A DNA stretch of 24,501 nt. It comes from a virus (taxonomy: Duplodnaviria; Heunggongvirae; Uroviricota; Caudoviricetes). This document shows, one piece after another, positions 19,453 to 20,356 of the stretch. Position 1 is the stretch's first letter; each line of letters begins with the position of its first letter. Location: the IMG/VR virus record IMGVR_UViG_2700989161_000006; one strand, written 5' to 3'. The notes beneath the pieces were generated by a model. The model had not been told where the DNA came from, did no database searches, and worked only from the letters and a program-made list of their open reading frames with translations. The translations under genes and the position numbers were made by a program.

Positions 19453-19476
19453 GCCTCGCATTTGCGGGGCTTTTTT
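19453..19476 (+). terminator. Intrinsic terminator after the lysis cassette
   Basis: gcctcg-cauuug-cggggc (one G-U) followed by UUUUUU. Confidence 0.5.
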
Positions 19477-19622
19477 ACATCTGCAGTAAACCGCGCATCG
19501 CAGCGCGTAACAATCCCGAGTCTTTCAGAAAGCTGAGCCTGAGAATTGCCGTATATGGTGGCGACCATCTCGGGGGCGGCTTTTCTGTGCGAACAGGCTC
19601 ATCTTTCTAAAAGGTAAACGCT

Positions 19623-20108
19623 ATGAATAACTTTGTTGAAATTACCTCAAGAATTGGTCGCATGTACCAAGATTTTCTTATAAGTGGAAAGGGGTCTGGC
19701 GACATCATAGAGGAAATTGACAAGCTAAGTGCAGAGCTGAGAAGGAATGGGTGTGTTAATTCTATCTTTTTTGAAACTTTGCTAAAGCAAGGCTTTATGT
19801 TTGACATGATTAATTACAACAAAGTCGCACCCAGTGCTTCGCAAAAATCATATGTGTACGTTCTGCATGCTGAAGATAGTGGGCTAACAAAAATAGGGTT
19901 TAGTCGCAGGGTTAATAAACGAATTTCAGAGATATCTCGCATGAGTGGTGGGAAGCTAAATCTAATTGCAAAGATTCCGGCCGATAGAGAGCTTGAAACC
20001 AAATTGCACCAAAAATATTACAACTATAGGTCGCACGGGGAGTGGTTTAGCCTCAATCGTTGTCATTTGAAAGAGCTAAAAGAAATGCCTGGTAACGAAC
20101 TGAAATAA
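19623..20108 (+). CDS. T5orf172/GIY-YIG-like domain protein with unrecognised N-terminal domain (cargo gene)
   Basis: 161-aa ORF with AAAGG RBS; C-terminal half YVYVLHAEDSGLTKIGFSRRVNKRISEISRMSGGKLNLIAKIPADRELETKLHQKYYNYRSHGEWFSL fits the T5orf172 (GIY-YIG superfamily) pattern; gene is visibly AT-rich and bracketed by a terminator and ~250 bp of non-coding DNA. Confidence 0.6.
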   Translation: MNNFVEITSRIGRMYQDFLISGKGSGDIIEEIDKLSAELRRNGCVNSIFFETLLKQGFMFDMINYNKVAPSASQKSYVYVLHAEDSGLTKIGFSRRVNKRISEISRMSGGKLNLIAKIPADRELETKLHQKYYNYRSHGEWFSLNRCHLKELKEMPGNELK

Positions 20109-20356
20109 TCCCCGGACTCACTAATTAACGGCAGTACAGCGAAACAACCCAAGCCAGTAAGTGGGGAAATAACACTGGCAGCCACTGAAAGATGAACCTC
20201 CTGCCTTATGGCAAAAAAAGATTCTTTGTGGTGGCGGACTGATGGAAAGACATCGGTTATTGCAGAGACCATTCAATGAGTGGTCTCGACAATGGCTTAT
20301 ACCCTACACGGGATAACTTAACTGATATCCCTTTTAACGGATAAACGGAGCCAACA

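Follow-up and report, generated by a model that had tools for sequence, protein, structure and literature searches.

A T5orf172-domain gene in an exchangeable late-operon slot of a P22-like prophage

Overview

This report concerns an open reading frame (ORF) at positions 19623-20108 (plus strand) of the viral record IMGVR_UViG_2700989161_000006 in IMG/VR (Caudoviricetes), encoding a protein of 161 amino acids (aa). The whole stretch of DNA analysed, 24,501 nucleotides in length, is referred to as the window. Comparison with related phages and prophages at the sequence level shows that the late operon of lambdoid phages contains a fixed expression slot which can be filled by different genes, the one under study among them. 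The slot comes immediately downstream of the lysis cassette and ahead of the packaging genes, and the alignments show that it supplies a terminator, a leader, a ribosome-binding site and the start codon. Its occupants are seen to be a Rha-ORF11CD3 gene, a KilA-N-ORF11CD3 gene accompanied by that of HkbL, or an HkbL-like domain fused to a T5orf172/MUG113 domain. From these alignments we are confident that the gene under study is a late-operon accessory gene of the last kind, residing in a slot in which genes are swapped with ORF precision. A preliminary description of this DNA had regarded the gene as candidate novel cargo in an AT-rich single-gene island; what it observed is confirmed, and how it interpreted the observations is supported in part. 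The gene, its two domains and the parts of the slot are as follows.

19623..20108, plus strand: gene for the 161-aa two-domain protein (epsilon34 gp68 family, phrog_4284), with an ATG start and the Shine-Dalgarno sequence AAGG at 19611-19614
19623..19826, plus strand: HkbL-like domain, aa 1-68, an acidic three-helix bundle with an isoelectric point (pI) of 5.2, assigned by BLASTP to HK620 HkbL and by phrog_875
19851..20084, plus strand: T5orf172/MUG113 domain, aa 77-154, basic (pI 9.7), with Pfam matches above the gathering cut-offs
19452..19477, plus strand: intrinsic terminator after the lysis cassette, a stem at 19452-19471 of 8 pairs (6 of them G-C) followed by a T run
19478..19622, plus strand: leader of 146 bp common to all slot occupants, delimited by alignment of 9 loci
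20109..20356, plus strand: trailer, part of the backbone, about 250 bp without an intact ORF, with hairpins at 20265-20287 and 20310-20331

The late-operon slot

Alignment of the window with phages HK620 and Sf101 displays near-identity from the end of the Rz gene through the terminator, the leader, the ribosome site and the ATG, beyond which the sequences become unalignable. Near-identity returns at the stop codon in Sf101 and 11 bp beyond it in HK620. Between these points HK620 carries hkbK and hkbL, and Sf101 carries a Rha gene. HkbK is composed of KilA-N and ORF11CD3 and the Rha protein of Sf101 of Phage_pRha and ORF11CD3; the 161-aa protein displays no similarity to either of them. Because terminator, leader, ribosome-binding site, ATG and trailer are shared with Rha- and KilA-N-bearing phages, the gene swap is ORF for ORF. 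In a sample spread over 2651 matching Escherichia coli records, the slot holds Rha, KilA-N, one of two very different "GIY-YIG" alleles, in each case with or without an additional Gp49-family gene, or nothing. The notion of an island insulated by a terminator and by non-coding DNA is not upheld by these comparisons: both elements are conserved backbone shared with the Rha and KilA-N phages, and only the coding sequence differs.

The intrinsic terminator named in the preliminary description is present, with its stem and T run as listed. It is annotated as rho-independent in epsilon34 and is conserved in HK620 and Sf101, and in strain LZSFT34 the same position is held by a different hairpin with a T run. 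The leader that follows has a mean column identity of 85% over the 9 loci, which differ in their lysis cassettes and comprise 4 kinds of downstream gene (Rha, KilA-N and two T5orf172 types). It is predicted to form a long hairpin at 19521-19614, in which the Shine-Dalgarno sequence AAGG is paired with 19521-19525 and which includes a GC-rich stem followed by a U run at approximately 19548-19590. The predicted fold of the leader RNA has a free energy of -66.9 kcal/mol (z = -2.4). A covariation test of this hairpin yielded zero compensatory changes, the leader being too conserved to provide any. Rfam lists no family in the range 19380-20460.

A simple consensus scan of positions 19420-19640, covering the distance from the terminator to the ATG, found no sigma-70-like promoter even at 8 of 12 matches, a level at which the prophage on average displays about 6 promoter-like sites per kb. 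On the plus strand, no terminator was found between the stop codon and the next gene. Lacking a promoter and a downstream terminator, the gene is not an independent transcription unit. Its position inside the late operon and the missing promoter lead us to expect transcription from the Q-dependent late operon, and not in the lysogen. A moron would have a promoter and a terminator of its own; neither is found here, and the upstream terminator belongs to the backbone. A lysogen-expressed moron was considered and rejected, given that a promoter is absent and that the leader is common to the other occupants.

Downstream of the gene, the preliminary description had noted about 250 bp of non-coding DNA with a hairpin, and this is borne out. 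The trailer folds with z = -4.3 relative to shuffled sequences. Its hairpin at 20310-20331 is followed by TTTT, and the one at 20265-20287 has another sequence in E. coli E20, with several compensatory pair changes. A 24-codon ORF annotated in Sf101 has its frame shifted in the window, because the A run at 20214-20220 is 7 long, compared with 6 in Sf101 and HK620. In E. coli GF43, a Gp49-family gene (372 bp, 123 aa, phrog_322; locus L011, 3885-4256), absent from the window, is situated exactly at the position corresponding to 20254/20256. From this insertion point it follows that the trailer is backbone with a second slot, which is empty in the window and likewise ORF-precise.

The second "GIY-YIG" allele has the same architecture and is about 34% identical (locus L012, 3175-3663, in E. 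coli GmM066, and locus L025). It fills this slot in lambda-like prophages whose lysis cassette is of the DLP12 type. Identity to the window amounts to 86% in the leader and 96% in the trailer, despite coding sequences saturated with changes.

The gene and its distribution

The ORF is a real gene under purifying selection, judged by its sequence: the protein matches phrog_4284 over its full length (E = 1e-75), a Shine-Dalgarno sequence precedes the ATG, and comparison with a 60%-identical homologue gives a non-synonymous divergence (pN) of 0.28 and a synonymous one (pS) of 0.82, the latter saturated. Collinear homologues reach down to about 35% identity, and full-length ones occur in genomes of Escherichia, Erwinia and Duffyella and in metagenomic phage contigs. 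The AlphaFold2 model of the 161-aa protein has a mean predicted local distance difference test score (pLDDT) of 86.7. The AT-richness pointed out earlier is real, with a GC content of 38.9% versus 47.0% for the prophage, which puts it about 2 standard deviations under the mean and among the 2.7% of 486-bp windows with the least GC. Homologues likewise have a GC content below that of their host phages, the extreme case being locus L006 (39.5% versus 55.8%).

The gene is not novel, contrary to what had been proposed, and is already catalogued in databases. A region of 1061 bp around it is 99.4% identical to Salmonella phage epsilon34 (gene 68; EU570103), 99.2% identical to phage g341c (gene 64; FJ000341), and 98.9-99.4% identical to prophages of 56 complete E. 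coli genomes, among these strain W. RefSeq already lists the product as "GIY-YIG nuclease family protein". Gene 68 is not discussed in the epsilon34 genome paper (PMC2629481), and our search of the literature found no functional study of the gene.

The full allele is present in 56 of the 2625 E. coli genomes that have the flanks (about 2% of loci) and in 5 of 242 phage records. Presence in so few loci identifies the gene as accessory and not core, which agrees with the preliminary description of a variable accessory position between lysis and packaging genes. A core lysis or structural function was rejected on the same grounds.

The HkbL-like N-terminal domain

The N-terminal part of about 65 aa had been described as belonging to no recognizable family. 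It is homologous to HkbL of HK620: BLASTP gives 33% identity over 55 residues (E = 9e-11), the domain matches phrog_875, the family of HkbL, and in the reverse direction HkbL matches phrog_4284. A word-based homologue search with the domain alone found only the domain itself, for which reason an exhaustive profile search was needed. The latter, covering 1.84 billion representatives, returned 12 clusters only, consisting of free HkbL-like proteins (86-107 aa, with a basic tail) and of fusions to T5orf172. The domain is acidic both free and fused, and in the fusion the T5orf172 domain takes the place of the basic tail of HkbL (pI 11).

Helices are predicted at residues 3-21, 25-41 and 47-68, and a model of the domain alone has a pLDDT of 90.7. 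A structure search against BFVD returned nothing significant, by which we take the domain to be a generic helical bundle; structure searches beyond BFVD likewise gave generic helical bundles only. In a Pfam scan of the whole protein, no zinc-finger, helix-turn-helix (HTH) or other DNA-binding family was found.

The T5orf172/MUG113 C-terminal domain

The assignment of the C-terminal part to the T5orf172 branch, with the motifs listed in the preliminary description, is corroborated. MUG113 (PF13455) matches aa 90-154 with 50.1 bits (cut-off 22.3), and T5orf172 (PF10544) matches aa 77-154 with 39.2 bits (cut-off 20). Among 40 homologues, with identities as low as 21%, residues Y79, K90, G92, R100, E125, H129, E140, W141 and F142 never vary, and I91, R136, H138 and G139 are conserved in at least 90% of the same set. 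The layout is that of the family throughout: Tyr in strand 1, Lys-Ile-Gly in strand 2, Arg in helix 1, Glu-x-x-Leu-His in helix 2, and a closing His-Gly-Glu-Trp-Phe. In the AlphaFold2 model, the predicted order of elements is strand-strand-helix-strand-helix. Y79, K90-I91-G92, R100, E125, H129 and E140-W141-F142 are candidate active-site residues.

The proposed check by hidden Markov models came out divided. PF10544 and PF13455 lie above their cut-offs, while the canonical GIY-YIG model (PF01541) gives no match at E <= 1. The family profile finds nothing among PDB sequences at E <= 10, and alignment to I-TevI by hhalign has a probability of 4.5%, which is not significant. The link to GIY-YIG rests on the Pfam clan assignment and on the literature (PMC10448857).

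A reference point is Odn of phage ICP1, a T5orf172 protein that cleaves DNA in vitro and whose E180A variant is inactive in vivo and in vitro (PMC8263062). Its motifs read YLYVI, IKVG, KR and TEQRIH. Residue E180 of Odn corresponds by motif to E125 of the 161-aa protein; the equivalence is given by motif only, because automatic alignment is ambiguous there and misplaces the Glu motif.

The nearest relatives of the domain in the homologue search are mostly proteins of 80-161 aa with varied small N- or C-terminal extensions. One of them (locus L020, 4001-5036), also of 161 aa, joins T5orf172 to a DNA-binding segment corresponding to the N-terminus of a small terminase (Terminase_2). The phage also has a genuine small terminase, whose gene begins within that of the chimera; over 50 residues the two proteins are 36% identical. 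By analogy with Odn, this chimera is possibly a nuclease directed to the pac site. It echoes published fusions of RepA_N and T5orf172 (PMC10448857), which are anti-satellite nucleases and provide a precedent for captured N-terminal domains.

Coupling to Rha and KilA-N genes

Whether it is free or fused, an HkbL-like reading frame with a Rha or KilA-N gene in front of it always overlaps that gene by 4 bp (for instance at loci L007, 1777-2738, L016, 3336-4486, and L002, 2222-2973). In HK620 the translationally coupled pair is hkbK and hkbL, the latter starting 4 bp before the former ends. At loci L007 and L008, a free HkbL-like gene lies in the Arc/Arc/Ant region and has the same overlap with a Rha gene. 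At L016, the fusion has a full-length homologue, collinear from residue 4 onward and 35% identical (E = 6e-26), whose gene shares 4 bp with Rha inside an Arc/Arc/Bro-N/Rha cluster inserted between tail genes. In several unrelated phages (L004, L018, L021 and L012), a homologue of the fusion separates the lysis genes from the terminase. These arrangements suggest that HkbL-like and Rha/KilA-N proteins form a two-subunit unit, undescribed in the searchable literature, where no mention of hkbK or hkbL was found.

The Bro-N, KilA-N and T5orf172 domain-shuffling network was reportedly first described by Iyer and colleagues in 2002. Coupling of HkbL to Rha and KilA-N genes, coupling of the fusion to Rha, and alternation within the slot place the gene in the Bro-N/KilA-N/Rha part of such a network. 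The families that occupy the slot are members of the published "Bro-N network" (PMC10111431), and T5orf172 is reported to co-occur with Bro-N and KilA-N (PMC8096241).

Recent exchange of the gene

Within the coding sequence there are 0-1 mismatches per 100 bp between the prophage of the window, epsilon34 and E. coli strains. The flanks display 8-21 mismatches per 100 bp relative to epsilon34 and 17 per 100 bp relative to GF43, and in GF43 the break in identity falls within the leader. This pattern shows, at the level of aligned sequences, recent exchange of the gene through conserved flanks.

Possible function and alternative explanations

We tentatively favour, at somewhat less than an even chance and by analogy with Odn, a reading in which the protein is an active endonuclease made late in lytic growth, whose N-terminal domain self-associates or docks on a partner of the Rha/KilA-N type, and which serves competition between co-resident phages or elements. 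Transcription would be carried out by Q-antiterminated polymerase late in lytic growth, the gene being silent in the lysogen. The basic C-terminal domain would bind and cut DNA with the residue set Tyr, Lys-Ile-Gly, Arg, Glu and His, as in Odn. The acidic three-helix domain would not read DNA and would instead let the protein self-associate or dock on a Rha/KilA-N-like partner, which is presumably also what free HkbL does. Competition in lytic growth may then proceed via homing-like conversion of rival alleles through the conserved flanks, or via attack on rival DNA.

Several points weigh against this proposal. Rha and KilA-N occupants follow the same swap pattern, therefore ORF-precise swapping needs no nuclease. 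A clean empty-site allele was not found among the relatives, the occupant-less E20 and SEN22 being different mosaics in which the leader is absent as well. The allele is rare (about 2% of loci), and the protein is devoid of the zinc-finger and HTH domains carried by 87% of surveyed T5orf172 homing endonucleases (PMC10448857). Furthermore, the promoter scan is a consensus test which weak or non-sigma-70 promoters could escape.

A first alternative, which we regard as unlikely but worth serious weight, is that the protein binds DNA without cutting it and acts as a regulator or an antirepressor-like factor, performing the same regulatory job as the Rha and KilA-N genes that replace it. Interchangeability with Rha-ORF11CD3 and KilA-N-ORF11CD3 behind one leader speaks for it, as does the coupling of the HkbL module to Rha and KilA-N genes. 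T5orf172 was also first predicted to bind DNA by its association with Bro-N and KilA-N, according to a citation given in PMC8096241. In place of the second Tyr of the canonical YIG motif the protein has Lys, and structure search gave no match to a GIY-YIG nuclease. However, the proven nuclease Odn likewise has Lys-Val-Gly in place of YIG, and the Arg, Glu and His that match the catalytic set by motif are invariant in the 40 homologues. CapR, the one "domesticated" relative known, kept its DNA-binding domain and lost T5orf172 (PMC8096241), which is the reverse of what a regulator made from the 161-aa protein would need.

Doubtful to a greater degree is a classical free-standing homing endonuclease with a specificity of its own, cutting the slot or a neighbouring essential gene in phages devoid of the gene and being copied in by repair. 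The literature regards T5orf172 as a family of homing endonucleases whose genes cluster close to terminase genes (PMC10448857), and the gene is placed beside essential genes and shows signs of horizontal spread: it lies upstream of terminase here, and its homologues occur immediately ahead of terminase genes in unrelated phages (L004, L018 and L021). Near-identical copies exist in diverged backgrounds, with breakpoints close to the ends of the ORF, and the GC content is under that of the host phage. Against this, a sequence-specific DNA-binding domain is not recognizable, and the N-terminal domain is acidic. Instead of a presence/absence polymorphism with an intact empty target site, relatives hold other genes in the slot, and the "empty" E20 and SEN22 are the mosaics mentioned above. 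Flanks of alleles with and without the gene are near-identical, so that no protective polymorphism is visible, and the allele frequency is only about 2%. A homing-nuclease-like role, as raised in the preliminary description, is conceivable.

A more speculative reading, which we consider improbable, would see the HkbL-like domain as a captured "address label", as RepA_N is in Odn. On this view, DNA-binding proteins of the Rha or KilA-N type would have free HkbL as their partner subunit, and the fusion would dock its nuclease on such proteins of a rival, or on their DNA sites, and cut there. If true, this would constitute a protein-guided anti-phage or anti-satellite nuclease acting in lytic growth, and would for the first time assign a function to phrog_875 and to the Rha/KilA-N genes that are widespread in late operons.

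Least supported, and in our estimate very improbable, is a prophage-expressed moron that shields the lysogen as an anti-phage or abortive-infection nuclease effector, which had been among the initial suggestions: the AT-rich composition, the terminator parting the gene from the lysis genes, the nuclease-type domain, the superinfection-immunity gene adjoining one homologue (L016) and a weak PADLOC match to the candidate family PDC-S57 would fit it, but promoter-like sites and a downstream terminator are absent, leader and start codon are common to Rha and KilA-N occupants, and PADLOC-DB 2.0 yields no significant defence-system match, PDC-S57 being the best (E = 4e-4, 18 bits) over part of the model only and with no partner genes present. 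On present evidence, the gene is not to be counted as a prophage defence gene.

The data bear on more than this single gene. The post-lysis position of lambdoid phages emerges as an ORF-precise expression slot with a conserved, possibly structured leader, whose occupants all come from the Bro/Rha/KilA/T5orf172 network. HkbL (phrog_875), a small orphan protein, appears as a recurring partner of Rha/KilA-N genes that is here fused to a nuclease domain, and provides a handle on the function of these very common late-operon accessory genes. The domain family itself has already been encountered in phage homing endonucleases and in Odn, an anti-satellite nuclease.

Prophage setting and neighbouring genes

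Positions 1-3977 of the window constitute the chromosomal left end, with two long ORFs, a tRNA-Thr(CGT) gene (2727-2802) and an integrase gene (2817-3977, minus strand). The tRNA gene beside the integrase indicates a prophage integrated at a tRNA-Thr gene; we presume this site to be thrW, which is used by P22-like phages. The rest of the window is a P22-like prophage with ERF, NinB, NinX and a Q-type antiterminator (17081-17599), followed by two tRNAs, holin, lysozyme, Rz/Rz1, a gp3-type small terminase at 22051 and the large terminase after it. The gene under study is placed between Rz and the packaging genes. It had been described as standing alone, which is not strictly so in view of its neighbours, listed here with the element that follows them.

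19266-19418, upstream of the gene: conserved ORF of 50 aa (phrog_11822)
20357..20455, plus strand: 5' part of a DUF2560 (hkbM-like) gene, the next backbone gene, disrupted by an insertion sequence
20456..21705, minus strand: IS3-family insertion sequence of 1250 bp (NCBIfam transpos_IS3, E = 6.5e-90 for orfB)

The insertion sequence has its genes at 21331-21669 and 20486-21304 on the minus strand, inverted ends TGAAGTGGT...ACCACTTCA, and a target duplication of 3 bp, CAG, at 20453-20455 and 21706-21708. It breaks the DUF2560 gene after codon 33, the remainder of which picks up at 21709-21852. We take the element to resemble IS911.

Two further observations concern other parts of the prophage. 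The two tRNA genes of the prophage, tRNA-Asn(GTT) and tRNA-Thr(TGT), are situated at 17663-17818 between the Q and holin genes, and the pair is also present in E. coli GF43. The most AT-rich stretch of the prophage (9611-10284, minus strand, about 36% GC) contains two adjacent genes: one at 9952-10284 (phrog_271), for an N-like antiterminator, and immediately after it one at 9611-9952 (phrog_5632, E = 5e-71), for a Nun-like transcription termination factor. PADLOC gives zero matches for this region. By these assignments, the prophage seems to carry both N and a Nun-type exclusion protein.

Comparison with known systems

Odn resembles the 161-aa protein in three respects. Both have a C-terminal T5orf172 domain with Tyr, Lys-[Ile/Val]-Gly, Arg, Glu and His motifs; both have an N-terminal domain homologous to a separate protein of other mobile elements; and both are encoded at a variable phage locus, where other isolates hold Rha-like or Bro-N gene pairs (PMC8263062). 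Sequence similarity between the two is confined to the domain motifs. The N-terminal domain of Odn is a known DNA-binding RepA_N domain (DUF6945 in Pfam), which explains its target, whereas that of the 161-aa protein is an acidic helical bundle. Odn comprises 226 aa and has been tested biochemically, while the 161-aa protein is known here from its sequence.

The T5orf172 homing endonucleases of ICP1, T5-like and other lytic phages (PMC10448857) share with the 161-aa protein the families PF10544 and PF13455, a location next to packaging genes and signs of horizontal movement. In that survey, where T5orf172 is treated as a GIY-YIG subfamily, its genes lie near terminase genes in 35% of neighbourhoods. 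Unlike the 161-aa protein, which has none of these domains and belongs to a temperate phage, 87% of the surveyed proteins carry at least one CapR, DUF723 or DUF4397 zinc-finger domain. The gene of the window also differs in that it replaces another gene and does not enter an empty site.

HkbK and HkbL of HK620 and the Rha genes of Sf101 and CUS-3 have the slot, the leader, the start codon and the trailer in common with the gene of the window, and HkbL is homologous to its N-terminal domain. They differ in that HkbK and Rha carry a DNA-contacting module, KilA-N or Rha, devoid of nuclease motifs, and in that HkbL is a separate polypeptide with a basic tail.

With the catalytic domain of I-TevI (PDB 1MK0, 1LN0), the C-terminal domain shares the order strand-strand-helix-strand-helix, and the non-significant hhalign alignment pairs GIY with YVY, YVG with KIG, and R27 with R100. 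The Tyr of the second motif of I-TevI is replaced by Lys in the 161-aa protein, and the closing motif is HGEWF in place of an Asn-containing helix.

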